Assembly: GCA_030704615.1 (NCBI GenBank)
Contig: CM060732.1
Location: forward strand, 23,064,001 to 23,128,000
Direction of reading: 5' to 3'
Origin: Takakia lepidozioides
Taxonomy: Eukaryota > Plantae > Bryophyta
DNA length: 64,000 nt
Below, one piece after another: positions 2,640-43,941 of this stretch. The notes under the pieces were generated by a model that saw nothing but the letters and a program-made list of their open reading frames with translations, had not been told where the DNA came from and ran no database searches. The translations under genes and the position numbers were made by a program. The number at the start of each line of letters is the position of its first letter. Position 1 is the stretch's first letter.

Positions 2640-2785
2640 TGCGGAGTCATTGATGCAACTTCTATCCGCCATTAGAAATGTGAATTTATCCATTACGACT
2701 GTGCAGTAGTAACAAACATCTCAAAGTTGTTCCCTCAGTGGTTTTGGACATGCAGTCGATTCGGAAAAGACACGAATGCTTCTAG
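2640..2785 (+). mobile_element. Helitron-like 3' terminus, copy 1
   Basis: Ends GATTCGGAAAAGACACGAATGCTT-CTAG|T: a short ATTCG/CGAAT hairpin, then CTAG (2782-2785), then T. Homologous to ~8887-9047, and the similarity stops at about this point. Confidence 0.6.
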
Positions 2786-2786
2786 T

Positions 2787-5365: not shown

Positions 5366-5379
5366 ATGAAGTAAAAAAA

Positions 5380-5920
5380 AACCATGCTTTGCTGCATTAT
5401 TAGGCCTGCCTTGGAGTACACTTATGCAGTGGGGGTTGATAACTCCAACCAGGTTAAGTCTTGGGTGCTTAAGGAGTGCATGTCAGCATGCTCCAAAATG
5501 CCTAATGTGGCTATTTGGGGTGAGTTTGGCATCCCTCCCTTAAGCTCCCAACGAGATTAAGTCAAGGTCAGATGGTGGGGTCAGCTCCAACGTATGACTA
5601 ATATCAGATACCCTAAGTTAATAGACTCTATATCTCACCCTGTCAAACAGGCTAAGTCCTGGCGGAAGAGGGTAGAAGAGATTTTCAAGGATCTGAATCT
5701 AAGTCCGCAAGTCTTGACCCTGCTGGATAACTCTGACTTACAGGCTATAGTGTCCAAAGCCATGTCTGTTGCCAGGAAATGTTGTTGATGAAAATGGTAG
5801 AAAACTTCCCTGAACTTCTTTCTAGTCTGTGACATGGGGGAGGACATCATGGATGACCTCAAGGGTTTACCCACAATACACTAAAATTCAAACTCAGGTC
5901 AGGAAGCCTACCTTTGAACA
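5380..5920 (+). mobile_element. Decayed non-LTR (LINE) ORF2 C-terminal fragment
   Basis: IRPALEY ... PNVAIWGEFGIPPL ... WWGQLQRMTNIRYPKLI ... KSWRKRVEEIF resembles the post-RT region of LINEs. Confidence 0.55.
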
Positions 5921-8330
5921 TCAAACAGATGCACAGAGGAAAGGGGGATTGCAAATGACAATGTCACCATGGACCTCTTTGCCCTTTTCTAGAGCTGTCA
6001 GGCTTGCACATGCAACAAACGTTAGGTGGTCGGGCTTCAACCCTTCCCCCATCATTTGATCATAGAACACCAAGAGAACACCAAAGCCTTCATCCCACAT
6101 CCTTGCTGTGCATACCCTACAAGCATCGCGTTCCATGACACACATCTTGTTCAGCCATAGTGTTGAAAACTCCCTTCGCATCCTCGATGCACCCACATTT
6201 TGCATACATTTCGACCAACGTATTGTTCAGAATGACATTTGGTACAATTCCAGCTCTGAAGATGTCGCCATGGACCTCTTTCCCCTTTTCCAGAGCTGCC
6301 AGGGCAGTGTTCATAATGACATTTGGTACAATTCCAGCTTTGATGATACCCCATGCACCTCTTTGCCCTTGTCATGCACCCACAATTTCGGTCTGATGTC
6401 CACCAGCGTATGGTTCAGAATGACATTTGGTACAATTCCAGCTCTGAAGATGTCGCCATGGACCTCTTTCCCCTTTCCCAGAGCTGCCAGGGCAGTGTTC
6501 ATAATGACATTTGGTACAATTCCAGCTTTGGTGATATCCCATGCACCTCTTTGCCCTTGTCATGCACCCACAATTTGGGTCTGATGTCCACCAGGGTATG
6601 GTTCAGAATGACATTTCCAGGTACAATTCCAGCTCTGAAAATGTCGCCATGGACCTCTTTCCCCATTCCAGAGCTGCCAGGGCAGTGTTCAGAATGACAT
6701 TTGGTACAATTCCAGCTTTGATGATATCCCATGCACCTCTTTGCCCTTGTCATGCACCCACAATTTGGGTCTGATGCCCACCGGGGTATGGTTCAGAATG
6801 ACATTTCCAAGTACAATTCCAGCTCTGAAAATGTCGCCATGGACCTCTTTCCCCTTTCCAGAGCTGCCAGGGCAGTGTTCAGAATGACATTCAGTACAAT
6901 TCCAGCTTTGATGATATCCCCATGTACCTCTTTGCCCTTGTCCAGGGGTCGATGCACCCACATTTTGCATACATGTCCATCAACGTGGTTCAGAATGACA
7001 TTTGGTACAATTCCAGCTCTGAAGATGTCGCCATAGACCTCTTTCCCCGTTTTGAGAGCTGCCAGGGCAGTGTTCAGAATGACATTTGGTACAATTCCAG
7101 TTTTGATGATATCCCCATGCACCTCTTTGCCCTTGTCCAGGGCTGCCAGGCTTGCACAAGCATTGCAAATGCACAGAAACATGATGTGGCCGGGCTTCAC
7201 CCCTTCCCCCATCATTTGATCATAGGTCTCCAAAGCCTCCATGCCACGTCCCTGTTGTGCATACCCTGCAAGCATCGCACTCCACGACACCACATCTCGT
7301 TCAGCCATAGTGTCGAAAACTCCCTTTGCATCCTCGATGCATCCACATTTGGCATACATGTCCAGGTCAGGGCAGTGTTTAGAATGACATTTGGTGCAAT
7401 TCCAGCTTTGACCGATGTCACCATGGACCTCTTTCCCCTTTTCCAGGCTTGCACACGCATTGCAAACACAAACAAACGTGATGTGGTTGGGCTTCACCCC
7501 TTCGCCCATCATTTGCTCATAGGTCTCCAAAGCATTCGTACCACGCCCATGCTTGGTAATCCTGCCAACATTATATTCCACGTGATCGTTGAGGCATTAT
7601 GTATTGAACACTTGGTGATCATCCATCATGCTCCCGTCAAACATACATGTTGACAAGGGTGTTGAGTAGAAAATCGTTCGGCGTGAATCCACTTTGGATA
7701 ATGTGAGTGTGCACCTGCTTTCCAGCTTCCAGGCCTTTCATCTTGATGCACTTATGCAAGAGACACACATACATATCTACATCTGCTGAAATGCCTCCTT
7801 GGTTTAAAGTCTGTAGAGCCTCTTTCAGTCTGCCTGCCTCATAAAGCATCTTCACATGCCCATAAGTGCCAGAAGAGGCAAATGTGGACTCCCTCTCTTG
7901 ATCCTCTTCCAGAAGTTGTGGTCATGGTTGAGGTGCCCGATTTTATCAACTGTGCCGCTACAGCTGCCGCTTCCAGCTGACCATCTACCCATGGAGGTTT
8001 CTTGTAGCTATCCTTCCACAAGGAACCATAGGTAATCTGGAGCTTGAAATCCGACCCTCTTGGATGAATATGGACCCACACTCTATCCTACTCCTTCAGC
8101 AATCACTGCATCTGCACAAATCATGCATACATCCTTGCCTTGCTGCCAATGCGAACATCGCACTCCACAACACCGCATCTCGTTGAGCCACAGTCGAACA
8201 CTACCTTCGCATCTTCATTGCTCCCGCATTCGGCATACATGTCCACCAGGGCGGTGTTCAGAATGACAAACCCTACAATTCCAGCTTTCACGATGTCACC
8301 ATGGACCTTCCATGTCACTTCCAGGTGGAG
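5921..8330 (-). pseudogene. PLS-class PPR gene (RNA-editing-factor type), frameshifted, with a PDF-motif exon just 5' of its N-terminus
   Basis: ORFs 7637-7855 (EAGRLKEALQTL...YVCLLHKC...GKQVHTHIIQSGFTPNDFLLNTLVNMY), 6793-7581 (P-L-S repeats, MYAKCGCIEDAKGVFDTMAERDVVSWSAMLAGYAQQG) and 5921-6314. ORF 7839-8081 has HPRGSDFKLQITYGSLWKDSYKKPPWVDGQL. No E/DYW domain was seen. Confidence 0.88.
6226..7140. repeat. Tandem repeat of ~188 bp, about 5 copies, inside the PPR pseudogene
   Basis: The unit starting GTTCAGAATGACATTT recurs near 6226, 6413, 6601, 6791 and 6988. Each unit holds two L-motif halves (KGKEVHGDI..AGIVPNVILN). Confidence 0.9.
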
Positions 8331-9554: not shown

Positions 9555-10150
9555 AATCCCCCGATCCCCCGATTCGAAACCTGCCGTCCCTCATCCCCTC
9601 ACCCCGTGGTCCCCTCATCCCCTCATCCCCCGTCCAGCTCCCGACATTCCCTCCATGATCCCCTCATCTCCCGGCCTGTTCCTCTGGTTCCCTGATCCCC
9701 TGGTCTCCCCGCCCGCTCCCCTCGTTCCCTCATCTCCTGATCTCCCCACCCGTCCCCCTGGTTCCTTGATCCCCCTGATCTCCCCAACCATTCCCCTGGT
9801 TCCCTGATCCCCTGTTCTCCCCACCCGTCCCCTTGGTTCCCCGACCCCCTGATCTCTCCCGCCCGTTCCCCTGCTTCCCTGATCCCCGCTAACCCCTTAT
9901 ACAATCCCTTGTCTCCTTCATCCCCCAACCGCCCTGAACCTGAGCCCCCTGATCCCCCCCTGACCCCCTTGAACGCCTTCCAGGCTCCCTTATCTCCCTC
10001 ATCCCCCGTTCCCCTAGCTAAGTCATCCCCTGTGGCACCGACCCTCCCAGTTCCCTGATCCCCCTACCCCCTTGTTCAACGACCCCCTCATCCGCCACAT
10101 CCCTGGTTGTTTGATCCACTCAAGGATCCCCTCACCCCTTCATCCCCTTC
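9555..10150. repeat. C-rich degenerate short tandem repeats (CCCTGATCCCC / CCCTCATCCCC / CCTGGTTCC)
   Basis: Directly visible low-complexity array. Confidence 0.85.
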
Positions 10151-10249
10151 ACAGCACAGTGGACGCCAAGAAGGCACAAAGGGATTACAAAGAGGAGGAC
10201 AAGCTTCATTTTTTTTTTCGTGGGGAATGGAGATACAATAGCTACATCC

Positions 10250-10960
10250 TCAACATCCGAGGCATGCACATGTGACAGTCTACGCTGCAAATCTACATCA
10301 TCCCAATTATCCACTATCCATCCACAAAGAAAATCTTGCTTTGATACTGCGTACTCAAATGTAAACCAATCTGCTGTAAAAGTTGCCCCCCATTTTTTTG
10401 TGATTTTGGTCTCCAAGTATTTCTGTATGAAAGTCATTACAAAGTAGCCACACTCCCAGCCGCTTGGTTGTTGTGGCACCTCAGGTTCCAGCCACTCCCA
10501 TGCCATTATTTCATTCCAAAGTACTGAGTCCGGTTCGGCTTTGTGTAGGTATGCTCTAAAAGTGCGAAGACGCGTTTCAAAGGCAAATCGGCTATGGGAT
10601 CTGAATGATGTCATGGAATTCAGATGAACAAACTTGGACTTATCAAAAATCATCAAACTCCAATGGCCCCTGCAGAACGCACATGTGTTTGAGGCCAGAC
10701 ACCACTAATGCTTTCCATTCTCCAAATCAAATCAAAGTCGGTCAAAGCTGCAAAATAGGAGGATTGAGGGACGTACCCAGAGCATAAGGGGATGAACCAT
10801 GCCTGAACCTTATCTGGATCCTTCCCTAGGCACTTCTCAGTTACCCAAACATTTACAAGCCCTTTGGAAATCCTGTGAAGGTCGTCCTTGGTTGATGCCT
10901 CCAAAGCCGTCCATATCAGTGTGTCCATCACAGCCCACCAGCAACGATTACTCTCCTCTA
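10250..10960 (-). pseudogene. Ulp1-family (peptidase C48) SUMO protease domain, frameshifted
   Basis: FCRGHWSLMIFDKSKFVHLNSM carries the catalytic His, with Asn at the Asp position. VPQQPSGWECGYFVMTFI carries the oxyanion Gln and catalytic Cys. ORFs 10132-10656 and 10653-10931. Confidence 0.8.
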
Positions 10961-15721: not shown

Positions 15722-16078
15722 TGATAAACAGACTTGTAAAGGACACACACTCTCAACACACAGAAATATGCAATCCTCAAGATCACTCTTAGAAATAGAA
15801 GTCGAGCCAGGGGCACCCCAAGCTATGGGGACTCCACCCCACAACAACCTACACTCCCATCATAAGCACACTCAGTCCTCAACAATGCAGGAGCTCGGTC
15901 GCGCAGGCTCAACTCGAGAGAGATGAGCTGCGCGACTGCCGCCTCCGTGAAGATAAGACAGACCAGGTGTCAAACTAAACTTGACACCTGATTTAACACT
16001 TGACCTAAATCCAAGTGTTAAATACAAATAACTAGTTTTATTCTAGCTGTTTTCACACTGTGCTTATTTAACTTGACA
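15722..16078 (-). repeat. LTR-like repeat, copy A (terminus TGTCAAG on the minus strand)
   Basis: 357 bp, near-identical to 27625-27981. Both copies end exactly at ...AACTTGACA. Confidence 0.9.
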
Positions 16079-16086
16079 GCTGTCGT

Positions 16087-16585
16087 NNNNNNNNNNNNNN
16101 NNNNNNNNNNNNNNNNNNNNNNNNNNNNNNNNNNNNNNNNNNNNNNNNNNNNNNNNNNNNNNNNNNNNNNNNNNNNNNNNNNNNNNNNNNNNNNNNNNNN
16201 NNNNNNNNNNNNNNNNNNNNNNNNNNNNNNNNNNNNNNNNNNNNNNNNNNNNNNNNNNNNNNNNNNNNNNNNNNNNNNNNNNNNNNNNNNNNNNNNNNNN
16301 NNNNNNNNNNNNNNNNNNNNNNNNNNNNNNNNNNNNNNNNNNNNNNNNNNNNNNNNNNNNNNNNNNNNNNNNNNNNNNNNNNNNNNNNNNNNNNNNNNNN
16401 NNNNNNNNNNNNNNNNNNNNNNNNNNNNNNNNNNNNNNNNNNNNNNNNNNNNNNNNNNNNNNNNNNNNNNNNNNNNNNNNNNNNNNNNNNNNNNNNNNNN
16501 NNNNNNNNNNNNNNNNNNNNNNNNNNNNNNNNNNNNNNNNNNNNNNNNNNNNNNNNNNNNNNNNNNNNNNNNNNNNNNNNNNNNN
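16087..16585. other. Assembly gap (run of N)
   Basis: About 500 N; continuity across it is unverified. Confidence 1.
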
Positions 16586-16929
16586 NTGTGTGGGCTGTGT
16601 GGGTTGTGTAACCCCCTTCTACGTGCTCGCTGTCAACCGCCTAAATGGTTCCTGTTTGTCTCAGTCTTTGCAAAATTAAGGTACCCTACGATCCCGTAAA
16701 GTGTCTAAGTCCCCTACAGTCCTCTAACACCACAGCCGTACTAAGTCCTCTATCACTGTCTTTATCGGGCTCAAACTCTATCAACCAAGAGGCCGGGTAC
16801 AAGAGTAGCCCCATCGTTAGTCGCCGTCTTGCAATCTATGAACTTGAGCCAAGATCTCGTGTGTTCAAGGTCTCCTAGTAGCTGGGCCTTGCGTTTCTTG
16901 TTAGCCTCCCATGGTTGTATCCACTCCCA

Positions 16930-18200
16930 CTATCCAATGCAATGTGGACATAACCAATCCCCATCCGGAACCATCTCAAGAGGTGGAGTAAGCATCCCCA
17001 TATGCCAACCTCTAGAGCACCGATCACATACCAGCATGGTGGCTGCCCCTTTAGCAGACCCACACAACATGCACCTCAAACCTGCAGATACCACTGCCAG
17101 GTTTGGGTCAATCCTGCCATCAACATTCGGAAGGTGACATGGCGCACAATTACGCACATGGTCCTTCCAAGTGATGCCATCCCGACCCTCCAAGACCAAG
17201 ACGCCTGAGGGCAAGACCTCTCGAACCCTCAAAATAACACGTCCTGCAGTCACATCCAGGGTCGTAGGAGCAGTCTGCTGCAGATAGACATAGTCACCAG
17301 GGTTGAATCTCCGAACCCCAGGACGATAGCCCCCACCACGTATGGTAGCATACCTCAACGTATCACGGTGTTGTGCAATGGCAAGGTTCTCGAAAGCCAT
17401 AGGCATGACTCTCTTGAACAACTCTGCACGCTGCTCACATGCACGTGCCCACACGTCCGGATCGTCAAGGTTAAGAACTGTAACAGCTTCTCTGCGAATG
17501 GATGTAGGCAAATCCGGCTCTCGGCCAAAGAGAAGAAAGTATGGTGAAAAGGGCAAGTGATGCTTGCTTGCTGAACCTGTAGCCCATGGCTAACCAGGGT
17601 AACTGAAGGTCCCAATCTCCTAGGTGTCCCTTCTGCAAGCCATACTTGCGCAAACCCCTCTTTACTGTCTGAACAACTCTCTCTGCCAAGCCATCGGCTT
17701 CAGGATGATCCCGAGAAGTGGTGCGGTGGTCTATCAAGGCCTTGTCACACAAAGCCTGAAACTCCCCAAGAATTCTCTCCCTTGGTCCGTGAGTACCTCA
17801 GCTGGAGCACCGAATCGGCTAAGCACACAATCCAGGAATGCATACGCAGCTCCTCTCACTAGCCTTATCAGGCAATGGAACCAATTCAATCCACTTGGAG
17901 AAGTGCTCCACCATCACCAACACGTACTTGTTGTGGCGCATGGTCAGTGGCAACGGCCCTGCGAAGTCAAGACTCCACCTGTAGCCCAATCCCATGATCG
18001 GAAGAGGGTGCAATTGTGGAGTAGGGGCGTTGAATGAAGCACGCACCCTGTCACACACCATGCACCTAGCCACAAATGTTGCACCTCTGTGTGCATACCA
18101 CGCCACCAATACTGCCCCTGCAGTAGACTATGAGTGCGTCGCACCCCAAATGCCCCAACTCCTCATGGGCATGCCGCACTAACCGTGCCCGCTGTGTTGG
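16930..18200 (-). CDS. Integrase with C-terminal PHD finger (frameshifted)
   Basis: HEELGH...CMVC zinc motif; WSLDFAGPLP; LTDQGREF; HPEADGLAERVVQTVK. Ends CMLC...MLVCDRCSRGWHMG(M/C)LTPPLEMVPDGDWLCPHC (C4HC3 PHD, ~16933-17075). Confidence 0.9.
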
Positions 18201-19901
18201 GTGAGGCACAATCCTCACTCGACCATCCTCCCACACTCGGAGCAGGTGTGTCCCCTCCCACCTGAACCTCTTGGCTCGTTGTAGGATCCGATCCCTCTCC
18301 TTGGCAGTCATAGTGGCTGCCGTGTCTCCACTGCGGAGGTAGTCCAACACAACTGAATCCTCATGTATATCTTTGGCGCCACCCTGCTCATTGCTGGCCT
18401 CAGGGTCCTCAGACACTTGATCTACAGTCATCCCTGTTGTAGGTCCAACCTGGCCTTCCGCTGCCAAGATACACAGAAATGCAGATGCATGCCATCCGGG
18501 CACCATCTCCTCGTCCGTCTCACCATGCCACCGAGCTCCAGTGTCATCCTGTTGGCTCGTGCATGGATTGCGACTCAACCCATCTGCATTTCGATTGACC
18601 AAACCCGGTCGATGCACCACCTGAAAGTCATACTCTTGAAGGATGAGTGCCCACCGTGCAAGCTTCCCCGTAAGCTTGTCTGACTCCATCAACCACTTGA
18701 GTGGTTGGTGATCCGTGACAAGGGTGAAGAGATTGCCGTATAAATAGCACCTGAAGTGTGCCACGGCCCACACTGCAGCTAAGCATTCTCCCTCATATGA
18801 GCTATACTTAGACTCTGCAGCATTGTTCGAGCGGCTAGCATAAGCCACTACGAACTCTCTTCCCTCATCATCCACCTGTGTGAGCACCGCTCCAAGCCCC
18901 AGCATGCTCCAATCTGTATGCAGCTGAAAAGGACGCCCCCTGATAGGTCGTCTCAAGATGGGCGCCGAGGTCAACCTCGCCTTGAGCTCTTGAAAAGCTT
19001 GTTCTTGCTCATCTTCCCACTGCCACTCCTGGTCCACCTTGGTCAGCTTGGTTAGAGCCTTTGCAATGGCACTAAATCCCTTAACAAACCGTCTGTAATA
19101 GTTTGCTAACCCCATGAAAGCTCGAACTCGGCTCACATCCGTGGGGCGTGGAACCTGTGCAATGGACTCTACCTTAGTCTGCTGTACCCCCAATCCTCCA
19201 GGATATATCATGTGACCCAGATACTCAATCTGGTTGTGGAAAAACTTGCACTTGCCCGGATGTAACTTCAATCCGTGCGTCCTCAAGCGCTCAAATACCC
19301 CCTGAAGGTGTCTCTCATGCTCCTCCACCGTAGCACTAAAGATGATGATGTCATCTATGTAGCACCGAGCAAACTCCACCCCTGCTAGAATCCTGTCCAT
19401 GACTCTTTGAAACTCAGCGGGAGCGTTTTTAAGCCCAAATGGTAAGAACCGCCACTGGTATAGGCAATCCTTCCCGTGCTCATTGATCCCCCAGAATGCC
19501 GTCTTTTGCTTATCCGCCTCCTTGATCGGCAACTGGTGATATCCGGATCGTAAATCCAACGTGCTAAAGACCTTGGAATGCCCAATGGCATCAAAGATCT
19601 CCTCTGGTGTTGGCATGGCATACCTATCGGACTTGGTCTGACGATTTACAGGCCGGTAATCACCGCACATACGTCTCTCCGTCCAATTGCCATAGACATC
19701 CTTCTTAGCTGGCATCACTGTGGCTGAAGCATACTCTCCACCAGAGAGCTCCACCAAACCTGCCTCCCAGAGATCTTGAGTCCTCATCTGAATCAAAGAC
19801 CTCTCCATGTCACTGTATCTATAGGGTCTCCGAAAGATTGGCGTGTCAGTGGCCAACTCAATACGGATCTCTTGACCCTTCAGTGCTCCCAAGTCCTTCA
19901 A
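18200..19901 (-). CDS. Reverse transcriptase and RNase H (gypsy)
   Basis: [87 protein letters not shown]. Confidence 0.97.
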
Positions 19902-20369
19902 ACTGAAGGCAAAGCAATTCCTGTAAGCCCTCAGGAACCGCCGTATACGTCGTCTCTCTCCTCCGGTGACAATGGGTCCAATATCAGGCTCCCAATTGTC
20001 CTCCGTAACTGCAACCTTAAGTCCAGTGGGCTTAGAGGTAGAGGACGCGTCCCGTGGTTGCTATGCTGCAACCTCTTGAGCAGTACCCCCTTCCTGCTCA
20101 GTCAATGACAAGGCCTCATCCTGCCCCATCATCTCATCATTGAGAACCTCCTCATCCCGAGAAGAATCCCCAACCTCATCCATCACAGCTGCCTTCGCTG
20201 CCAACTCCCTCTGAACCTCGAGCACCTCCCACATGTGCCATGGATGTCTACACCTCGTGGTCCTCACCGGCTCGCCCCCACTCGCTGCCTGTACCGTCTC
20301 GGTAGGCAGAGAGACCATCAAGGGAAGTGCACTCCGCACTCTACGTTGCTCAGCCATAGCCAAGCTGAC

Positions 20370-21310
20370 AATCCAGGTCAAGCAATTGAGATCCATTGCT
20401 TGCCCCAACACCTGACGACGTGATGCCTCAGAAAGGAAGGCACCGCCGTGGTCCCAGTGGAAAACCCCATAGCCCGCTCTCGCTCGTCGGCATTAGGCTC
20501 CACTAACTGCTGCAACTGAGCATCCCACAGGAGGCCAGGTCCACCATCCCGAAAAGCATGGGATCCTGGGAAGCTGAGCAGTGTAGGTAATGCTGCTCGT
20601 GGTTGACCCACTCTGTTGACCACTGCCAAAGGCGAACGGTCATCGTGTCTCACACGTTGAGACTGCCTTCCTGTGTCCAAAATGCCATCCACGGTGAGGT
20701 GTGCTGGCCGCTGCACCCCATCAAATGCACGCTTGAGCAGTGCGGGTGGCATCAAGTTAGTCCACCATAGTCGTGGACGATGAGCCCGTGACCCCACTGC
20801 AGCTGCATCCAGCAATACTGCTGACCCAAGCCACGACCGGACTTGATGCACACTGGCCATCACCCTGGCCCGAGAATCACCCATCAGTGGCACATTCTCC
20901 AAGATGTATGCGGAGATACAGCCTGATGAAGCTGCAAGTGGCGCAAAATCCGCACCATCTCCCAAAACAGACCCGTCCTCGAGTCTCGCAATCCATTGCC
21001 ATGCCCGGCTGATGAATGCCCTTGGCAGGGCCAACCTGCCACTACCAGATCAATGGAGCCAACCCGCTCCAAATCCTGCGCCCCCAGCAACGAAATGTCT
21101 GCTGGCAAGGCCTGCTGATATCCACGAACTGCAGACACCTGCAACAACTCAGGGTGCTGCTGCACCATCTGAGCAACATGGCGCAGTGAGACGCGTCGTG
21201 CAGTCTCATCCCTCTCCACATACAGGTAACGTCGAACTCGTACACCTGCCTGCAGCACTGCAGCCAATCCAGTGCTGATCCCGCCAAATAAGTCCAGAAG
21301 GCATATGCCT
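20370..21310 (-). CDS. DNA (cytosine-5)-methyltransferase domain, DNMT3-like, embedded in pol (about two frameshifts)
   Basis: Motif I LLDLFGGISTG; II YLYVERDETA; III ADI; IV DLVVAGWPCQGHSSAG (catalytic PC); V GLRDSRTGLF; VI YILENV; VIII SRAHRPRLWWTNL; IX EPNADERERAMGF; X LGQAMDLNCL. Confidence 0.93.
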
Positions 21311-21699
21311 TCATCCGGTCGCTGCCACACAAGAGGTGTGGTGTCCAATGGCGACAACTGAGGTGGCCCTGGTGCAATCACCGCACTCTCCTCCTCTCCT
21401 GACGGTACAAAAGCTTCTACCCAAGCTTGTTGCACCCGTCCATCAGCAGCTTGCTGCAAATCCTTGCTCGTACCCCACAACGGAGTGTGAGCAACCATGG
21501 CAGGCAACTCCGCCGTACCATGCATGTCATCCTGCTCTGCTGGAGGTGGCACATCCTCTGCATGGGCATTGCCTTCCAGCAACTCTCCAGGCCAGCTGAC
21601 TGCAGCTGTGAAGGCGGCTAGTGTTGGCATCTTGCCCCGCTGAGCAGCTGCAATACCCCCAATGAATGTCACAGGGAGCTGTGCACGGCGACCATCCCC

Positions 21700-22100
21700 T
21701 GACTGCCATCCAGGCCTGTAGGATGCTGACTCCTCCCAGAAATCCAGGGTGAAGCCCATGGGGTATAACACTGCCCCACCAACGAGGACATCGTAAGAGA
21801 CCGCGTCTGTCACAATGGCCTTGGCTCGCATCACTGAGCCATCTACAGGATGATCCGGCTGCAGTCTAATAGCCAACTGATGCCGTGTCATGCCCCGAGC
21901 CTGCTCTGATCCTCCCAGAGATGTCTGTATCTGGAAAGGACAAGGCTCCATATCCGCCTCCATGAGGCCCAAACCTGCAATAGCAGCTCTGCCCAACATC
22001 AGTGGCTGAGCTCCTGAGTCCAACAAGACCCGCAGTGGCCGGTACTTCTTGCCTGCCGGTCCACTCAAAGTGAAAATGCCTCCCTGGTTGTCTAACAAGA
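21700..22100 (-). CDS. Retropepsin-like aspartic protease of the DNMT-gypsy element
   Basis: RVLLDSGAQPLML ... YDVLVGGAVL, in the same ORF (20884-22680) as DNMT motifs I-V. Confidence 0.8.
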
Positions 22101-22606
22101 CAACTCCAGGTGTCACCATGGCGCGCTCAAAGGCTGGCCTAGCTGGCAGCTCCGTCAATCTGGCAGCTGCAGCTTGCCAGGGCGCTGCCGTGGCAGTCTT
22201 GACCCTCAAATCCGAGGATCCCTCTGCCACTACACCTTCCACTAACTCCGCAGAAGATGAAGTGACCTCTCCACTCTCGCAGAGTGTTGCTGCTAGTCTG
22301 AACACTGCAGCTGGTCTCACTCCCGGCGTCGCAATCATGGTTGCCGAGAACAGTGGGGCTTGACACACAGAGGTGGCTGCCCCCAACAACACACCGGCCG
22401 CACTAGCCTTGGCAGCAGGAGTCAGTGCTGCACGTGTAGCTCTCCCCAATGGCATAGTAACCTCCGCCTCGGTAACAGTCGGGCGAGAACTAGGTGCCAT
22501 GGATGGCGTTGACACTGTCTCCGCCAAGGTGAATGACTGAGGCAGCCTTGCCTGACGGCTTGCCTCCCCACGTTGTGGATCCAACTCCACCTCTGCACCT
22601 CGTGGC

Positions 22607-24265
22607 TCAGGAACTCGTGTTGCTCCTCGAGTCACGGCTGCAGCAGACTCCACCTGCTCTATGGTAGTGCTGCTCCGCACATGAATCCCATGCCTCCCAT
22701 ATCTCCTCCCTCAGGAGCAGGAGGTGGACCATCCCGCCTGGAGCCGGTACCGCCTGAGCTATAGCCATGGCAGCGAGCCTCTGCTCTAGCTGCTGAAGCC
22801 GGTTGGCCATGCCTTGGTCAACACCCTGACCTCCGCGTCCTTGGCCATGTTGAGCTTGCCCTTGGCCTGCACCTCGTGCCCGACCACCTCGTCCTCTCTG
22901 GGCTGGTCCACCTCGCCCCCGGCCACCATTGTTCCCTTGGAACTGGCCTGGGCGCAACTCAGGATGCAAGTCATAACACTGGGCATCTCCATGCCCATAC
23001 TTGCCACAATGCCCACACTGCAACTGTGCAGGCTGTGCTTGTGCCGGCCTTCTGCCACTCTCTGGGCAATCTCTCTTGACATGGGGTCCTCCACATGTCC
23101 AACATATCACCCCTGGTTGCTGTTGGCCTGCAAAAGATGCCACGGGCCTCTGCACCTGAGGTCCCCTGTAAGCTCCATGGAACTTGGGCTGGGCAACCTT
23201 GCCCCCCTGACCACGCTGTTGGGCAGTCCCTTGTGCTTGTGGGCTGACAGCTGTGCCCCGTACAGGCATGTCCTTACCAAATCCAATTGTAACAACTCGC
23301 TCCTCCACCATGTTGAGCTCAATCCGCTCAGCCAGCAGAAACACATCTGCTAATGTGGGTTGGGCTGCTTGTAACAGGGTTGCATCTCGCACCCTTCTCT
23401 TGAGCTCCTTGTCCAGAATTCCATACCAAAACTGGATTGCCTGAGCTTCAGTAACCCCTTGGGTCACACTTATCAAGCGCCTCATACGAGTGTACGCCTC
23501 TCGCAGGCTCTCACTGGGTTTGCGCTGGAAGTCTTGCAAACTTCGCAGCTTCTCTGTCCGTACACCTTGGTAGTTCCTCCGCAACTCCTGGAAGAACTCC
23601 ACCACCGGGTTGAATCTAGGCACATGTGTTGTAGCTGTGGCAGGAGGAGTAGTAGCACCTTCTGAACTGGTACCACCTGCAGAAGTACCAGCACTACCTG
23701 CTCCACTACTAGTGCTGGCAGTGGGAGCTATTGGTACTGATGCAGCTACTGGTCGCGTCATGCCTCGAGTAATGGAGATGTAGTCAGGTGACCAATACAT
23801 CCTCCACTCCTCAATCTCTGCTTCATGTCCTCGCCTGAACTCGTGGTAATCGTCCATAGGCGGGCCTTCCAAATGCTGGAACAGTCCCTTCCACGCCATG
23901 AATGGGGTGAATAGATGTGGATTGCGCATCTGCTGCAAATCACACCAGCTGTCGAACTCCTGGATAAAGTCATCCAACTCGATTGTGCCCACAGCTCCAG
24001 AGTACCTACGAGGCCCCTTGGTAGCTCCATACATCTCCTCCATGTCGTCCCACAACAATGGCGAATGAAAGTGCACACCTGTTGATGAAGCCTCCGAGCC
24101 TGTGTCTGACTCTACAGTAATTGAGGGTGGCGGTGAAGGTGGTCTGAACCGAATACCTCGTCTTGTGAACCCACTCTCACTGTTACTGCCTGTAGCCGTA
24201 CTCCCCTCAAAACCCTTGGGTAACTCCGTAATGACACTCACAATGTGCACCTCCTCCAGTGACAC
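22607..24265 (-). CDS. Gag of the DNMT-gypsy element
   Basis: FQRKPSESLREAYTRMRRL (major-homology-like region); two knuckles, CWTCGGPHVKRDC and CGHCGKYGHGDAQC; RGG-rich tail. Confidence 0.88.
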   Translation of the reverse strand: MSLEEVHIVSVITELPKGFEGSTATGSNSESGFTRRGIRFRPPSPPPSITVESDTGSEASSTGVHFHSPLLWDDMEEMYGATKGPRRYSGAVGTIELDDFIQEFDSWCDLQQMRNPHLFTPFMAWKGLFQHLEGPPMDDYHEFRRGHEAEIEEWRMYWSPDYISITRGMTRPVAASVPIAPTASTSSGAGSAGTSAGGTSSEGATTPPATATTHVPRFNPVVEFFQELRRNYQGVRTEKLRSLQDFQRKPSESLREAYTRMRRLISVTQGVTEAQAIQFWYGILDKELKRRVRDATLLQAAQPTLADVFLLAERIELNMVEERVVTIGFGKDMPVRGTAVSPQAQGTAQQRGQGGKVAQPKFHGAYRGPQVQRPVASFAGQQQPGVICWTCGGPHVKRDCPESGRRPAQAQPAQLQCGHCGKYGHGDAQCYDLHPELRPGQFQGNNGGRGRGGPAQRGRGGRARGAGQGQAQHGQGRGGQGVDQGMANRLQQLEQRLAAMAIAQAVPAPGGMVHLLLLREEIWEAWDSCAEQHYHRAGGVCCSRDSRSNTSS

Positions 24266-24776: not shown

Positions 24777-25526
24777 CTATGCTATCAACTTCCAGACTTC
24801 TCTCAAAGTGCCTCGCTCTGCATGATGGTAAGGTGTAGGAGGTATATCTATGTCCAGAAACCTGCCACTAACCTTGTCCCAAGCTACAGTAGCTCGCTCT
24901 AACCAACCCTCCTCCTCTTTCTGCCAGGTAGAGACAAAGCAATACTCCCCTATCTCCCGCTCACTGAACACTAAAGAAAACAAAGGTAGGGTCTGATAGT
25001 CTCTCAACTCGAAAGCTTTGAGACGGTTGCGGGTGTCCTCATTGCGAATGACTGCATCTCCTTCACGCACAACAAACATGTCATTGCTGATGAACCCCCG
25101 CTCGTGGTTGCCCTGTGCAGAGCGTATCCGGCTGCAACCATGTCTGATTGCACAAACTTGTGTAGCTCCTGCTCCTCTGCTCCAGTACACCACGGCCTTG
25201 TGGCTGAACACCTTGGTCCCCGGGGCTGTCTTTGGCTGTGTTCCAAGCCTAGCTTCCACCCACTTTGGTATTTCACCTACAGCTGCAGAACTGCTGGCTC
25301 CAACAGAGTTCTGACTGTCCAAGGCGATATTGAGGCCCTCAATGCCAACTACAGCAGTCTGTTGTCTACTGCTAATGCCTGACTCCCAGTATGCAATCAA
25401 CTCGTCCAACTGTTCTCCACTCAAATCAGTCTGAGTTCCTTGGGAAACATAAATCTTGTCCCCTTTGGTGCACAGGCTAAGAGAAGAGACCTGCCCTTCA
25501 ACGACGTCCTCATTTCCCCCAGCCAT
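24777..25526 (-). CDS. 249-aa ORF of unknown function upstream of gag
   Basis: Uninterrupted ATG-initiated ORF of normal complexity, on the same strand as gag. Confidence 0.5.
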   Translation of the reverse strand: MAGGNEDVVEGQVSSLSLCTKGDKIYVSQGTQTDLSGEQLDELIAYWESGISSRQQTAVVGIEGLNIALDSQNSVGASSSAAVGEIPKWVEARLGTQPKTAPGTKVFSHKAVVYWSRGAGATQVCAIRHGCSRIRSAQGNHERGFISNDMFVVREGDAVIRNEDTRNRLKAFELRDYQTLPLFSLVFSEREIGEYCFVSTWQKEEEGWLERATVAWDKVSGRFLDIDIPPTPYHHAERGTLREVWKLIA

Positions 25527-26239
25527 ACAAGGAGTACATCCACAGATTTGTCTCTAATATAGACCAGCACAGGTTCTAGAGACAGGATTGTGGATCTTTC
25601 ATGGCACACTCACACTCTAAAAATTCCATAGATTTTTAGCAGAGTCCCAAAAACAGAAACCAGGTCTAGATAGGTAGATTTCCCCTTTCTGCAGCTATCC
25701 CCTCAAAAACTGAGTCAAACGGAGCTCATTTGACAAAGATATGACCAACCAGGCTCTTTAAACATTTAAATTAGATAAAAAGGCTTTGTTTTTTTTTTTT
25801 TAACACCAAAACGCTTTTGTCATTATAACTGCTCCCAAGTCACCTACGAGTTCCCAACACGTCCAGGTAGTTCGTCCAGGTAGGGGCGATTTCAAGAGCA
25901 GATCAAGAGATGCACTGCGCAACACCCTCATGGCTTATGGACAGGCGGCCTGCAATCGAACGATTCATGGATGGTTGCTGGACTTGCACAACACATCTGC
26001 CACATCGGAACCACAGCTTCACTTCACCAACATTCAGCACAACAGGAGCAGAGCAGAGCATACAAGAGCTTGGCCGTTGATTGCGACACCTGTTGTGTGT
26101 GAAGTTTGAGAATTGAGCTGCTTTTTTTTTGATGTCTGTGGTTCTACTGTGGTGTTGTACGTGTGCTCCTTGGACCTGTTGGACCTCCCGCAGACGTGAT
26201 AACTTTCTTTTCTTCTTATCCTTGAACCCTCCTGAGGCC

Positions 26240-27539: not shown

Positions 27540-27981
27540 GCACTACTCTCACACAGGTAATCATACAAGTGCTAACCCTCAACTCCTACCTTGCACTCAC
27601 AGGTAAGAGCTCATCTCTCTCGAGTGATAAACAGACTTGTAAAGGACACACACTCTCAACACAAGAAATATGCAATCCCTCAAGATCACTCTTAGAAATA
27701 GAAGTCGAGCCAGGGGCACCCCAAGCTATGGGGACTCCACCCCACAACAACCTACACTCCCATCGTAAGCACACTCAGTCCTCAACAATGCAGGAGCTCG
27801 GTCGCGCAGGCTCAACTCGAGAGAGATGAGCTGCGCGACTGCCGCTCTCGTGAAGATAAGACAGACCAGGTGTCAAACTAAACTTGACACCTGATTTAAC
27901 ACTTGACCTAAATCCAAGTGTTAAATACAAATAACTAGTTTTATTCTAGCTGTTTTCACACTGTGCTTATTTAACTTGACA
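27540..27981 (-). repeat. LTR-like repeat, copy B
   Basis: 27625-27981 matches copy A. 27560-27625 additionally aligns with the diverged copy C. Confidence 0.88.
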
Positions 27982-29385: not shown

Positions 29386-31294
29386 TGTCAAGTTATTTTA
29401 CCACTAGTGTGAAACTAGCTAGGAAATAGCTAGCTTTTACATATTGACATTTGGGATTGGCCCAAGTGTCAATCCAGGGGTCAAGGAAGATTTAGGCCCT
29501 GGAGTGGTTATCTTCACGGCAAGCGCGGGAGGCTCATCTTTCTCGAGTTGAGCCTCACCGCGCCTAGCTATGGCGCCGTAGTGTGGATTCCCCATGGCGT
29601 GGGGTGCACTTGGCTTGACTTGTATTTGAGTGATGAGGTTATATATGCATGAGTTTATGCTTCAGATTTGTGAGCTCGTGCTTGTATTCCTCTTCTTTAT
29701 CACTCGAGAAAGATGAGCTCGTATCTGTGAGTGCCAGATACGAGTTAGTTGTAGCACTTGTGGTTTTTGCTTGAGAATGAGAGAAACCAAGTTGTTATGC
29801 AAGGAGCACCGTGGAGCTCTTGGTTGTTAGAAGCGGAGGCGATGTGGGTTACGAGGTGGTAGACCTTGGCATTCAATCTTCAGCTTCAGAGATGAAAGCA
29901 CCATGCTGCAGGTAATTCCAGAGCACCTTGATGGTTTCAGATTGTGTACATGCATGAGCAAGCATGATTGGGAAGAGGACCAGTCAAGAGCAGGTTATAG
30001 TGGCTTTGGTGGCAAAGCTGAGAACTGGACTTGGGAATGCGAGCTTTCATTGTGTGAAGGATTGCAAGACCAAGCGAAAGGGCTGATTTGGCTTGGGGCA
30101 AATCAGTGCACTTTGTGGAGTATGGTGAGATTGGACTGGACTTGGGAATGCGAGCTTTCATTGGTGAGAGTGGGGCATGTGTGGAGCATGCCTTCAGCCC
30201 ATTGAGGCTCTTTTTTTCAAGCTTTAGAGAGCTAGAACGGAAGGTCTAGGGCTGGTTTCCACTTGGAGTGAAAGAAAAGCACTTGTAGGGCCTATGTGAG
30301 TTGGGGTTTCAACTTCAAGCTTGAAGGGAATGCAACTCTTGAAGCAGCAGGTGTAGGGGGCTGGAATAGGCTCTAAGACAGATGCTATGGCCAAGGAGAG
30401 TGCTTAAATGAGTGCTCACAAGGGCTGGGAACCAGCAGGGCTTGGTTGTTTGCCATTGAGTTAGTGGCGTGTTTGGGGAGGCTAAGTGAGAAAGAGGCTT
30501 GGTTTGTGGCAACCACCTCATGGCATAGGGCTACTATGGTGGTGTGTGGGAGCCGAAAGAGCAAGAATACCTTGCTGATTTCCTCACAGCTGCCATAGCT
30601 CGGTGGAAAGAAGCCTAGAGTCCAAGAGACACAAACCCTAGCTTGGCGTGGCTAAACCCCTTGGAGAAATGGCTAAACTGCCAGAGCGGCCATGGATGGG
30701 GCTGTGACGGGCTGTCCCTGTGGCCTTGGGGGTTGTGACGGGCTGTGAGGGGCTGTGCCGATGGCCTTCAGGGCTATGAGGGGCTGTGAGGGCTGTGCCG
30801 GTGGCCTTTTGGGCTGTGACAGGCTGTGCCCGTGGCCTTTAGGGCTCTGATGGGCTGTGAGGGGCTGTGACAGGCCGTGCCTGAGGCCTTTGGGGCTGTG
30901 AGGGGCTGTGAGGGGCTGTGAGAGGCCGTGCCTGAGGCCTTTGGGGCTGTGACGGGCTGTGAGGAGTTGTGTCAGGCCGTGCTTGAGGCCTTTGGGGCTG
31001 TGAGGGGTTGTGACAGGCTGTGCCCAGTGGCCTGTGGGGCTGTGACGGGCTGTGCGGGGCTATGAGAGGCTGTGCCCAGTGGCCAATGGGGCTGTGAGGG
31101 GCTGTGAGGGGCTGTGACAGGCTGTGGCAAGCTGTGCCATGTGGGGCTGTGACGGGCTGTGACAGGCTGTGCCTGAGGCCTTTGGGGCTGTGACGGGCTG
31201 TGCCCGTGGCCTTTGGGGCTGTGATGGGCTGTGAGGGGCTGTGACAGGCCGTGCCTGAGGCCTTTGGGGCTGTGATGGGCTGTTCTCTGTGACA
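29386..31294 (+). mobile_element. Diverged LTR-like copy C, possibly a ~1.9-kb 3' LTR
   Basis: Starts TGTCAAGTT right after purine run GAAGAGGG (PPT-like). The first ~380 bp are homologous to copies A/B in reverse orientation. A candidate inverted end TGACA lies at 31290-31294. Confidence 0.5.
30695..31285. repeat. GC-rich minisatellite (GGGGCTGTGA / CGGGCTGTGCC / GGCCTTT units)
   Basis: Directly visible tandem array. Confidence 0.92.
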
Positions 31295-33402: not shown

Positions 33403-36400
33403 GGCAAGCACAAGCGCACTGGATCCACGATCCCTGCTGCTAGCAATGAAGATGGCGCCCACAAGAACGCAGGAGGTGGCCCTAACTCTCCCAACGTTGT
33501 GGGTTCTGTGCCACCAGTACCCCCACCTTATTATGGTATGCCTCAGTACCCACAGTCTGGCACTCAGTATGGTCAGGGTCAATATGGTGCTCCTCCATAT
33601 GGCCAGTATGGCCAGTATCCTCCTCCACCATATTTGCCACCCCCTAATAGCTATGGGGGTGGCAGGCCACTGGAATATCCTCCTGCTTATGGACAGTATG
33701 GCCAGTATAGTCCTCGGCCTTCTGGCCAACAACCATGGCCACCAGTCCCTACTTGGCAGGATCCTGCTTTGAATTCTCCTGAGCGCACGGAGGTCTCTGA
33801 AGGAGGGGAGGGTGCCATTTCAAAGAATGAGAGAACCAATGCTTTAAGGAGGGCTAATAGCTCAGCCAAAATTGAAGCTGCCAAGGTCAAGGAAGACAGA
33901 ATAGCTGCAGGTCTTCCTCCCACGGTGATTTTGACGAACCTCAAAGGAGCCCCGTATGGTCAGACCCGGAATGTATGGCACGCTGCCCTTAAAGGACAGG
34001 CTTATCGCAAGCTAGATTGTTCCCTTGCCATCAACAACCAACCTGATGAAGTTGTATACAAAATCAGAGATCACCTGGCTAAGCTATTTTCATATACGCT
34101 GCACGAGTTAAAAGACTTCCACCTAAAACAAACAATTGGCAGAATAATGAAGAGCCAGCGTTATGAAGCACACACTGCGTGGTTGGGTGGTAAGGGGAAA
34201 CCCATTATTGTATCTGACGAGGTATGGAACAAGCTTGTAAGTTACTGGCAGACAGAGGTGTTCCACAAAGTGTCGGGCAACATGAAGAAGGCAAATGGTG
34301 CAATTCTGAATCCTACCAAGACTGGCCGTGGTGGGAAGGCAATGGTGGAAGCACGCTTGGTAAGTGGCATCATCACGACTCTGTATTTTGTTCCTCGTTG
34401 AATTGCTATGTGTATATAGTCAGCCCTCACATTGCTTACTGACTTGTGGCATGGGTTTGTTTGTGGCATGGATTAATTTGTAGGAAACACTATCAGGGTG
34501 CCCTCCTACATTATATGAAATTCAAGAGGGTTCAGTGTCACGGTTGTCAGCTGGGAGTGACAGGCGGGTAAGTGTGTTTTCCACGTTTGCTAGAGTGGTT
34601 GCTGCATCATAGGTTGCTAGGGTTTTTTTCACGGCTTTTGGCCTGGGTTTTCTTTCCAATGGTTGTTCATGCTAGGTTTTTTGGGTTTGATTCATACTTG
34701 GGCAAGTTTTCATGGATTGGCAGGAGGGAAGTCTTGCATATTCTACAGTAGTTGGCAGGATGGATGGCTTGGACAAACTGGTGGAATCACAAGGACGTGA
34801 CATGGCAAAATTAAAATTACAGATGCAGAGTATGATTGAGTACCAGAAAGCCATTGTGACGAGATTGGGGATTAATCTACCAGGCGCAGGACCAGTGACA
34901 TCTACGATGGATACGTCTGCTGTGACAGTATCAAAATGTTTGGAATCCCAATTTCAGACGGTAACTGGTGCTCACTCTAAGCCCTTATGTCTTCCTGTCA
35001 CTGATGATCTTTTGAATTTGACCGAGCAGCAGCAGGATACAGGGAAGGCCAGCTGTGAGGTACACGTGGAAATTCAGCCCTTGCCACGTACAAAGGCAGT
35101 AGCAGTCCAGGGGGCAATGGTGACAGAGCGGCCGGGCACACCGGATTCTAGTATGCAGGTATGTGGGAGTTTAGATGGGGAGGAAGATGCAGACGGGGAC
35201 AAAACAAACAAGCAGGTTGCTTTAATTTCTCCTGCTCACATGTTGAAGCCAAATGTCAGTTTACTTCCTGGACCAACGAGGAAGCATTTACTAATTCTGG
35301 ACTTAAATGGTCTGTTATGTGAATCTTTTCATTCTGCTAATGGGCCTGCATCCCTTCCCAAAGGTTTTGTGGGGAAGATGTGTGGCAAGAAGATGGTAGT
35401 TTTGAGACCACGCTGTTATGACTTTTTGCAAAAGTGTTTTGAACACTTTGAGGTGGGCGGTGTGGTCTTGTTGCCAAGCTCGCAACTTCTTCCCAATGGT
35501 GGACTATATTTTTGCAGCCCACACTAACCTGGTTTTCCAGTGGGATGCCCTTCACTGTGACGAGGATCCAGTCCTCCCATGCCGTAAGGGGTCTGATTCA
35601 AAGCCATTATATTTCAAAAACTTGTCCACAGTGTGGGCAGACTGGCCAGAATGGACTTATGAGGACACTGTTCTTGTTGACGACACACCAAGAAAGGCGG
35701 CAAACAATCCTCCCTTCAGTGGGATTTTTCCAGAGCCATGGAAGGTGCAACCAGATTCACCAACTGATGAGTATCTAACAGAGGTGTTGTGGCGTTTCTT
35801 GTGGAAGGCATCGAAAGCTGCCAGTATTCCCAAGTTTTTGGAGTCTCAGCCTGTTTTCGGACAACAACCATACAACACTGCTACTGTGAAGGTACAAACA
35901 TTCTGACAGTGCTCTAGAGGCTACATTTTTGTGGGTTCATTCATTGCATTGCTTTCCTGGATGCTTCTCCTCGGTTGCTTGATTAATGCTAGGTTTTCTT
36001 TGCAGCTTTTCATGTTGGTTTTTTTTGTTTGATTCATACTTGGATTTTGTTTCTATTCACTATTCCTGTTTGCTCATTGCTTTCCTGGTTGATCTCTGGT
36101 CTGTGACACAGGAACTTGTGACAAACAAAGGTGATATTGTCGACAAGCCGGTACAGACGAGGGGCAAGAGTGTCGACCCGGCGAGTAGCCCCCCAAAAGA
36201 GGTCTCACCACCACTGGAGACTGCAAATGGAGTAAGTCCAGGCCGTTGTCTTGTCTGTTATATTTTTTCCAACCTTGGGGCTATCTTTAACTTGCAAATC
36301 TTGAGTGTCCTAGTCGTGTGTATGTCATGGGTTTTCACATCGTGTTCTTTTTTGTGTGGAGTTGGGATCACAGTTCAGGGTGGGTGACGAGGTTCGGTTG

Positions 36401-37800: not shown

Positions 37801-39904
37801 AAAACGCTCATCTGTTGTAGTGATCCCACTCGATATGATGAGCAGGTTCAGCTTGACTTCTCTCACACAAAAGACGCTGCCAAGATGGGGTTTGCTGCCC
37901 TAGATGACTTCCCGTCGTTGTTCTGGGCTGCAACATACAATTAATCTGGCCCATGGCGAGGGGCCTTGCCTTCCACCAATCATCTGTAAGTCCTGTGAAA
38001 CTGTTTTTGTGGCAGTTTGTAAGCAGTGGGCAGCGATGGTGGGCTGTTGTAGGATTTGATGAACTCAATGCCGTGTACTGACAACAACCCCTCATCTCTT
38101 ATGCAAGCATTCAACAAGCCAAGTTGACTGCAGAGCATATTCAGCCCCCCACGTTTCTAGTTGCCTAATGTTCTTCATCTCCTGGGCAGAGCATTTTCCA
38201 GGGTCTCCATCTGTGATGACACACTATCTTCTCATGTGGTTCAGCTTCTGGTCTTGCTCTTGTTTGCACCACCCCAATGAAGGGCAGTTCCCACCTGCTT
38301 GATTCTCTCTATATGGTTGTCTTTGGGTCTTGGCAGGGTTTCCCACAACCGCCTTTCCTTTCCAGACTGCCAGTCATCAGCCTCGTTCTCCAATGCTTCA
38401 CTTTCTTCCCAAGTGAAGTGCTCTCCTCTTTTATGCTTCAACGTCCCTGCAGGTGTCTTTTCCTTCATCTCCCGTGGTGCTTTCGAATGAATGAGCACTG
38501 ATTTACATCTGTTGGCAACACTTACGGTGTCCCTTTCCTTGCATGCCACTGCAGGCCCGCATTGACTTTCTTGGCAGGGAAGTCTCCTCCTTCTCCCTCA
38601 TTTTCTGGCTCTGTTGGTGCCCCACTCACCATGCTATCAGGGCTGCATTTATTTTGTGGTGTTGCGCCAGCCAAGGGCGATCTTTCAGGCACCAGGTTTT
38701 CTACCCTGCCCTTCCACTTTTCATAAGCGAGGTGCCTGTCTTCCTCCCTTTCACTCTTCAGCCTCTCAGGCAGATTTTTCTTCATGCGATTGCTGCTCCC
38801 ATACTTCCAATCCTTGTTTAATTTTCTCCAGCCATCACCCTCAGATTTGACAAGGTATTGCTGCCCTTCCTTGTGTCTTTCCTCACTCCCAGCTGCTGGT
38901 TTTATCCCAGATTCACCTCTCATCCTTGCCTGGGGTCTTGCTTGCCAAACAGCCCTTGTGTGGGGAACTTCAACGAAAGGCAACATCTCATTCTCAGCTC
39001 CTGTCTTTGTACCTCTTTGCAGCAGTCCAGCCTTGGGTGCCTCACTTTCTGATTGCTGGGTTGCATTCTTCGCCACCAACATTTGACAAGAAAGTGTGCT
39101 CCATCTTCCTCATCTCCTACTGGTTCCCTTGATGCTTCACCTCGTATGTCTTCCTCCTCATGTTTTAGCAGCAGCTCCCATGCTTGAATTGCTACTTTTC
39201 CTCGTAGTTGATCTTGTGCTTTCCTTTTTCTCCGTAGCTTAATCAACAGTTTTGTCTTGGTAGCTCCCTTGCCATGAGTGCCTTGTCTCACTGCATCTCC
39301 CTTGGCTGCCCACCATCCGTTGAGTCTTTCTTGCACTATTATGACCCTCGTTGGCATGCACTTTGCTGCGATGCCCCACATGTATTTGCTGCTCCCTTTA
39401 ATCATCAACATAGTGCTCCAGAGCCAGTTCCTCATTGTTGACCAGTTGACCTTCTCAGCCCTTGGACACCATTTTCCCTTCTCCCATGTTGCCTCGTCTT
39501 TCTGCTTCATCATTTGCTTTACTTGCACGATGTTGCTTCTTCCCTACAGCTCATCATGTGTTGTGGCTCTTTCCCATGTTGCACTCACTCCCATCATACG
39601 TTGTGCAGTTGATAAGACTGAGATGAGTTGATGCAGGATAGGGGGAGGGCTTGCTGGTGTATGTTGTCCGATAGGCCCCATGCACAGAGTCAAAGCTGGA
39701 AGTCAGCCTTGCAAGGACCCAAGTGAGAGAAGTCTGGTGGGGGTAGCATCTTGGGGGATGGCAGTTAGGGCAATGTGTGTCTAGGGCAATATATGTCATA
39801 GCAGCGGGTGATGTGCTGCCAATTTTGAGGATAGAGACAGCCTGTAAGCTGTAGATTTGTATAAGTGGTTTCTTCTGACACATATTGCTCCCAGTTTGCC
39901 ACAA

Positions 39905-43927: not shown

Positions 43928-43929
43928 CT

Positions 43930-43941
43930 TGGTATCAGAGC
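43930..43941 (+). promoter_or_regulatory. Primer-binding site (initiator tRNA-Met)
   Basis: TGGTATCAGAGC, 2 nt after the 5' LTR. Confidence 0.95.

Follow-up and report, generated by a model that had tools for sequence, protein, structure and literature searches.

We analysed a 64,000-nucleotide stretch of the moss Takakia lepidozioides (contig CM060732.1; hereafter the window), which contains a Ty3/gypsy retrotransposon of a highly repeated moss family, in a copy whose reading frame is broken. The element carries a DNMT3-like C5 cytosine methyltransferase (MTase) ahead of its reverse transcriptase (RT). Our sequence comparisons indicate that this enzyme closes a first open reading frame (ORF1, Gag-protease-MTase) at a conserved in-frame UAG, and that it would therefore be made with Gag, while RT and integrase are likely produced by read-through of the stop. 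Gypsy elements of this kind have been known from algae since 2018. Their occurrence in land plants and the read-through layout are new to the literature we found, judged from the portions of the sources consulted, a scope that holds for all citations below.

The coding span runs from about 24,170 down to 16,930 on the minus strand, in the order Gag-protease-MTase-RT-RNase H-integrase-PHD. The features of the element are as follows (positions in the window):

25527 to 25810, minus strand: 5' leader and probable terminal region, from the drop in summed contig depth in run X2.
24777 to 25526, minus strand: ORF0, a 249-residue frame with its own ATG upstream of gag, likely part of the element.
22769 to 24172, minus strand: gag, with a Cys-His knuckle at 23066-23104 (PF03732, E 0.0016, below the cut-off).
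21650 to 22100 (limits approximate), minus strand: aspartic protease region, placed by its LDSGA motif at 22009-22023.
20340 to 21312, minus strand: DNMT3-like C5 cytosine MTase, motifs I-X in canonical order (PF00145).
20055 to 20063, minus strand: in-frame UAG followed by CAA CCA, the end of ORF1; the stop is conserved across loci.
18630 to 19990, minus strand: RT (YIDD at 19350-19361; PF00078, E 1.5e-32) and RNase H (PF17917, E 3.9e-36).
17230 to 18175, minus strand: integrase (PF00665; motifs and segment map), with a zinc-binding His pair at 18150-18173, D-D-E at 17954, 17770 and 17660, and GYRPG at 17317-17331.
16939 to 17073, minus strand: PHD finger, the end of ORF2 (PF00628, E 5e-9).
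16808 to 16825, minus strand: 18-nt motif of the 3' untranslated region (UTR), shared by 9 of 79 metagenome loci at 17-18 identical nt, distant relatives among them.
16587 to 16729, no strand assigned: terminal part of a different repeat that has inserted into the 3' UTR; placed by contig joins, it runs into a 500-N gap.

The Ty3/gypsy order Gag-protease-RT-RNase H-integrase is present in the window copy and likewise in an intact relative, L105, whose protease-homologous region gives a weak PF13650 match. The window gag is 43% identical to the intact frame of the relative L026 and contains zero stops. The PHD finger, in which one Cys ligand is Met in the window copy, has CHD4, KDM5B/5A, PHF12, ATXR5 and PHF21A as its best PDB matches; the fingers of CHD4, KDM5 (PHD1), ATXR5 and PHF21A prefer unmethylated H3K4. 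This finger, the conserved stop and the 249-residue upstream frame had all been missed by an earlier note on this DNA. Seven frame breaks interrupt the window copy (at about 22,660-22,770, 20,911, 20,433, 18,150, 18,076, 17,854 and 17,550), and in the aligned in-frame segments the sole stop is codon 20,061-20,063; decayed relatives have 0 to 7 stops per MTase domain. Because the breaks come without decay stops and a neighbouring gypsy is fragmented too, some of them may be assembly errors. In that neighbour, an MTase-less Ty3/gypsy at 43114-50098 on the plus strand, the long terminal repeats (LTRs) agree at 632 of 638 bases, yet the coding region is split into many frame pieces, a hint of indel errors in the assembly.

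The earlier note had placed an MTase with ordered motifs between LDSGA and YIDD, and every motif it named was found on the minus strand where it had put it: I, DLFGGI, 21277-21294; IV, AGWPCQ, 21022-21039; VI, ENV, 20891-20899; VIII, HRPRLWWTNL, 20753-20782; IX, ERERAMGF, 20462-20485; and X, LGQAMD, 20391-20408. The PC, ENV and HRxR residues are intact in the window copy, as reported there. One stop-free frame (20884-22710) holds motifs I-IV together with the protease, bearing out the single ORF claimed for the two domains, and it matches PF00145 with an E value of 4e-10, which clears the curated cut-off. The frame break at about 20911 precedes ENV and motif VIII, and that at about 20433 precedes motif X. 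When a seven-sequence family profile was compared with solved structures, DNMT3A was the best PDB match (E 1e-21), followed by tobacco and Arabidopsis DRM enzymes (4e-13 to 4e-9, DRM2 at 4e-9) and M.HhaI (1e-7). An intact liverwort homologue also ranked DNMT3A/3B first, and the predicted structure of the relative L032 (pLDDT 83) aligned to DNMT3A/3B with TM scores of 0.67-0.71; the N-terminal half of the window MTase alone did not separate DNMT3B from DRM. With profile and structure model both ranking DNMT3A/3B first, as the earlier note had proposed from one motif, the element MTase is best described as DNMT3-like and non-permuted. The MTase does not fit a host DNMT3 gene, which would be multi-exon and low-copy and have an N-terminal domain of its own: it is intronless, protease-fused and several hundred-fold over the flank in depth. 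Viral contigs gave zero matches to the window MTase half and, for the family alignment, just phage-type methylase matches at 25-41%.

A scan of metagenomes with RT only yielded 79 loci, several of them the same insertion in different samples, and 53 had enough upstream DNA to be informative. The MTase stood directly upstream of RT in 50 of these 53; one of the three exceptions was split by an insertion, one was 5'-shortened and one had been replaced by a hAT-like insertion. Summed depth in run X2, which is not a copy number, was 0.71-1.12 million in MTase bins and 0.99-1.2 million in RT bins, with 660-1,750 in the flank, and in a second species a single X10 contig spans MTase to PHD. The trees of the two domains agree, RT with MTase (Mantel rho 0.64, p 0.001, 56 rows). 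Members with the MTase before RT form one clade in the MTase tree (support 1.0), with P0049 outside that group in the RT tree, and the two domain orders described below separate largely in both trees. The MTase is a family trait and not a one-off insertion, as the earlier note had expected. That the MTase is a once-captured fragment of a host gene and the stop a mark of decay, a reading to which the seven frame breaks of the window copy lend themselves, is refuted for practical purposes by these 50 loci, by the congruent trees and by a stop in 56 of 58 loci (see below).

Selection was gauged by the ratio of nonsynonymous to synonymous divergence (dN/dS). Between the window and 14 loci with finite dS, the MTase gave 0.05-0.12 (median 0.08, equal to RT) and not the value of about 1 that, by the earlier note, would have told against its reading, indicating that the family MTase is under purifying selection; the ratios are rough because dS to the window is near saturation, which tells against this reading, as does a dN/dS of about 0.5 for both MTase and RT within the peat-moss set, a sign of decay. 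Recent transfer from peat moss was also considered and is unsupported, synonymous difference (pS) being 0.71-0.75 for the MTase, near saturation.

Next, we consider the stop between MTase and RT. Codon 20,061-20,063 and its context read TAG CAA CCA. Among the 58 loci covering this site, 47 have TAG, 9 have TAA, one has GAG and one has unrelated sequence. After dereplication a stop was retained in 47 of 49 loci, and a nearby Trp codon was a stop in 3 of the 49. The hexamer after the stop conforms to CAR-YYA in four of five lineages (the window; L026/L027/L038/L099; L052; and L105), and CAR-YY followed 11 of 644 decay stops. The hexamers themselves differ, with CAACCA in the window, L026 and L052, CAACTA in L027 and CAATCA in L105, so the variation is confined to CAR-YYA, and the linker around the stop is not alignable between the lineages that keep it. 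L026 has a single frame from gag into integrase, interrupted by the conserved stop and one other. The intact L105 consists of exactly two ORFs, Gag-protease-MTase and RT-RNase H-integrase-PHD, divided at TAG CAA TCA, and ORF1 and ORF2 share a frame in 12 of 14 loci. Among proteins, the Calypogeia model and several Marchantia models end 91-97 residues past motif X. Proteins that end soon after the MTase domain form one clade in the MTase tree (0.975) that includes all named land-plant members; those of Closterium, P0047, P0049, P0034 and P0170 read on from MTase into RT. These patterns indicate that the stop is a conserved feature and not decay.

The arrangement resembles known leaky stops. In tobacco mosaic virus (TMV), CAR-YYA alone directs read-through, at about 10% in vivo, and with this type I UAG the upstream product exceeds the polymerase (PMC2754532); the element has the same UAG and CAR-YYA. 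Murine leukaemia virus (MuLV) makes gag-pol by 5% read-through, and SIRE1 and Tca2 also have in-frame stops (PMC2194720). The stop lies between gag and pol in MuLV and Tca2, whereas here the protease and MTase precede it. Because the MTase is on the Gag side of the conserved UAG, it would be made with Gag, and RT and integrase would be reached solely by bypass of the stop. The earlier note is supported on the Ty3/gypsy domain set, but its suggestion that the MTase is packaged and cleaved with Pol is unsupported as worded, in that it makes the MTase simply part of Pol. By analogy with the viral cases, we regard it as highly probable that ribosomes read through the UAG to make RT-RNase H-integrase-PHD. 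Two facts pull the other way: the large peat-moss lineage has CAACCC, its last base off the consensus, with an ATG three codons past the stop, and the gag stop of Tca2, similar-looking in context, gave no read-through on test (PMC2194720). No strong shared RNA structure was evident 3' of the stop, in a comparison made without a shuffle control. Both the Tca2 precedent and the peat-moss ATG would suit a UAG that is a true terminator, with RT-integrase coming from spliced or internally started RNA or from re-initiation. Such a terminator is improbable given the common frame of the two ORFs and a CAR-YYA kept in four lineages amid a non-alignable linker. Further, the first Met past the stop comes at codon 85 in the window and at codon 117 in L105, both within RT, so AUG re-initiation would truncate RT, and L026 lacks an early ATG as well.

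What the enzyme does was approached through CG depletion, measured as the retention of C/G in CG context relative to CHH at four-fold sites. Retention was 0.41 in the window element, 0.15 in the near-intact L026, 0.14 in L027 and 0.48 in L106, compared with 0.87 in the MTase-less gypsy of the window and 0.99 in a host exon. CHG was not depleted in the window, L026, L027 or L105; it was depleted in decayed peat-moss copies and in L052. The depletion fits CG self-methylation, and it fits host CG methylation too. Several observations limit the former: the intact L105 is only weakly lowered (0.73 and 0.90), the comparison has two controls only, and the host gene region at 53300-64000 is itself CG-poor (observed/expected 0.37) without losing CHG, so that the depletion can equally come from host methylation. 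The gene in that region, a FORGETTER1-like gene at 52583-64000 on the plus strand, is CG-poor without CHG loss, as expected of gene-body CG methylation.

Taking layout and depletion together, we lean slightly towards a read-through element whose MTase would be packaged at a Gag-like level and probably methylates new cDNA at CG sites before integration. In this scheme ORF1 would be made in bulk, and a minority of ribosomes (about 5-10%, by analogy with TMV and MuLV) would pass the UAG to yield RT, RNase H, integrase and PHD, leaving the MTase roughly tenfold over RT. The protease would free the MTase inside the particle, where, present in Gag-like amounts, it could methylate CG sites of the cDNA before integration, and the PHD finger would steer integration towards chromatin without H3K4 methylation. 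A likely benefit is that the new insertion would bear, from the outset, the marks of methylated host DNA. Related DNMT3 enzymes of Symbiodinium DIRS elements carry out de novo CG methylation (PMC5890265).

Against methylation by the packaged enzyme, the one Klebsormidium enzyme assayed gave no methylation signal in yeast, an assay its authors call inconclusive (PMC5890265), and in most algal-type relatives (proteins P0122-P0200) the P-C of motif IV is replaced by W-E-C. Both facts would agree with an MTase fold kept for a non-catalytic job, such as nucleic acid binding or chaperoning in the particle, and a high stoichiometry would suit a structural role. We hold this to be improbable, since the catalytic Cys, EN and H-R-x-R are retained across moss, liverwort and algal members, ENV is present in 37 of 43 decayed locus matches and the SAM-binding motif I is intact. 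Somewhat less improbable, and still unlikely, is an active MTase that works outside the particle, entering the nucleus and methylating integrated copies or host chromatin, and so limiting its own spread or altering host silencing. Synthesis at Gag level would leave much free enzyme for this, and self-limitation to the benefit of the host was named as a possibility in the 2018 paper (PMC5890265). However, the MTase itself lacks a targeting domain, the PHD finger being on the other ORF, and the lineages with the greatest CG loss are near-intact ones (L026 and L027), which fits marking at each replication cycle.

Relatives of the element occur in liverworts, peat moss and green algae. The C-terminal half of the MTase matched 52 proteins, with Calypogeia fissa at the top (77%), followed by the best Marchantia polymorpha models (63-73%) and Sphagnum, and a profile search retrieved at least 106 proteins, including Closterium, Haematococcus, Chromochloris, Monoraphidium and Cymbomonas. 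No Klebsormidium protein was among the 52 and at least 106 matches listed, in word-based searches of up to 2000 residues. Two domain orders occur, both with integrase-PHD: the MTase stands before RT in bryophytes, Closterium and some environmental proteins, and after RNase H, before integrase, in the named chlorophytes and most environmental proteins. Tentatively, and with somewhat less than even confidence, we propose that an ancient clade of PHD-bearing gypsy elements in green plants, running from chlorophytes to mosses and liverworts, kept one DNMT3-like enzyme and shifted it from behind RNase H to before RT; that the land-plant branch then added the leaky UAG, giving MTase loading at capsid stoichiometry and CG-methylated cDNA; and that ORF0 is an accessory protein of new fold gained in this moss lineage. 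The host is a land plant and not a contaminant, the concern raised in the earlier note. In a comparison of one exon, the first of the FORGETTER1-like gene (52,583-53,170), identity was 81% with Ceratodon purpureus, 64% with Sphagnum and 62-63% with liverworts, which points to a moss that is probably no peat moss. Several Marchantia models with PF00145, for example Mp_4g09160 and Mp_8g17980, are ORF1 of such elements and not host methyltransferases. L105 and L106 are intact eukaryotic elements of this type inside two cyanobacterial genome bins, most likely through contamination.

The closest published system is KnitGypsy-Dnmt3 of Klebsormidium nitens (de Mendoza et al. 2018, PMC5890265). It has the same gypsy domain set and an intronless, non-permuted DNMT3-related MTase with catalytic residues. 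Its dN/dS is under 0.2, low as it is here, and the DIRS-like A-coding-B-A-B repeats reported there are found here in some relatives of the window copy. It differs in that its DNMT is in one ORF with RT and RNase H, whereas here the two share a frame parted by the conserved UAG. Its host is an alga and not a land plant, and the consulted portions of the paper do not mention PHD, ORF0 or read-through. The window element is a variant of the KnitGypsy-Dnmt3 kind and not a member of the Klebsormidium family, in a comparison made without Klebsormidium sequences. SymbioDIRS-Dnmt3 likewise has a retroelement-borne DNMT3 in two coexisting domain orders; it is a tyrosine-recombinase DIRS element of dinoflagellates with CG activity shown (PMC5890265), whereas that of the window MTase is a prediction. 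Gypsy-7a_cRei of Chlamydomonas, another gypsy of the green lineage, shares the PHD finger and has compound terminal repeats, but it has no methyltransferase among the domains listed, and the legend's list puts PHD before integrase (PMC9940879). The EpiLTRs of Cymbomonas and Euglena are likewise LTR elements that combine a cytosine DNMT with a chromatin reader, but they are DNMT4-related with DAM and a chromodomain, and the preprint sets them apart from streptophyte Gypsy-DNMT3 (bioRxiv 10.64898/2026.05.21.726589). The 2018 kind is cited for streptophytes in a paper of 2025 and a preprint of 2026, with bryophytes unnamed in the parts consulted. We found no description from a moss or liverwort, and no read-through for a DNMT-bearing gypsy, in literature outside subscription papers, Repbase-type catalogues and the main supplement of the 2018 paper. 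These findings bear on the following: 1) land plants carry DNMT-gypsy elements, and one such host is the genetic model Marchantia polymorpha, which has known methylation mutants; 2) the conserved stop predicts far more MTase than RT or integrase and offers a one-codon handle; 3) the spread into chlorophytes and Closterium questions a capture private to the Klebsormidium lineage; and 4) Marchantia gene models labelled DNA methyltransferases include DNMT-gypsy elements.

Regarding the ends of the element, depth on the 5' side in run X2 fell from about 190,000 (25697-25753) to about 4,000 (25811-25867) and 640 (26096-26200), which places the 5' end probably near 25,750-25,850. Within the window the element has no terminal repeat pair of its own. 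In assembled contigs, position 16729 is joined to four separate sites within the element, X5 and X10 contigs carry other sequence onward from 16730, and an N run (16087-16586, 500 N) lies beyond the inserted repeat; the element's own 3' repeats are out of view because of the repeat inserted at 16729 and the N gap that follows. A 358-bp repeat at 15722-16078 and 27625-27981 (98%) was rejected as an LTR pair, since depth falls at about 25800 and an inverted copy lies at 29386-29761. This repeat, direct at 15722-16078 and 27565-27981 with 98% identity and about 71% in the inverted third copy, probably represents DNA transposon ends. Among relatives, A-coding-B-A-B repeats are complete in L030, L033 and L053 (A 339 bp, B 113 bp), B-A-B ends occur also in L057, L074, L081 and L095, and several relatives end in B alone. 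In seven relatives with both ends, the target duplication was a perfect 4 bp in five, had one mismatch in one and was missing from one. Bases directly after repeat A are complementary to a site within A over 16, 11, 10 and 13 nt in four loci, for example L030:2018-2033 against L030:1842-1857, a count made without a shuffle control. This suggests self-primed reverse transcription in the relatives and recalls the self-priming of Tf1/Tcn1 (PMC6317226).

ORF0 has 23 relatives at E<=0.001, the best at 46% identity. It had no Pfam match in 22 members and its model (mean pLDDT 74) had no fold match (best Z 4.3), a missing match that does not show a new fold. Its depth, 200,000-550,000, is continuous with the gag leader, and its CG retention of 0.17 is a strong loss like that of the element; both tie ORF0 to the element, to which it likely belongs. 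It is absent from all 79 metagenome loci, and it may therefore be a separate repeat. An RNA ligase assignment was rejected: the atlas score of 0.86 was below the bar, and there was no conserved ligase motif and no Pfam or fold support.

Elsewhere in the window, 30698-31283 is a satellite with a 10-bp unit and higher-order periods of 41 and 51 bp. The stretches at 1090-8310 and 39900-40030 hold what we take, from their motifs, to be broken PPR-like repeat genes with internal tandem duplications, and frames at 10132-10704 and 35300-35906 resemble a ULP1-type protease and an FCP1-like phosphatase, presumably as in CACTA-type transposons.

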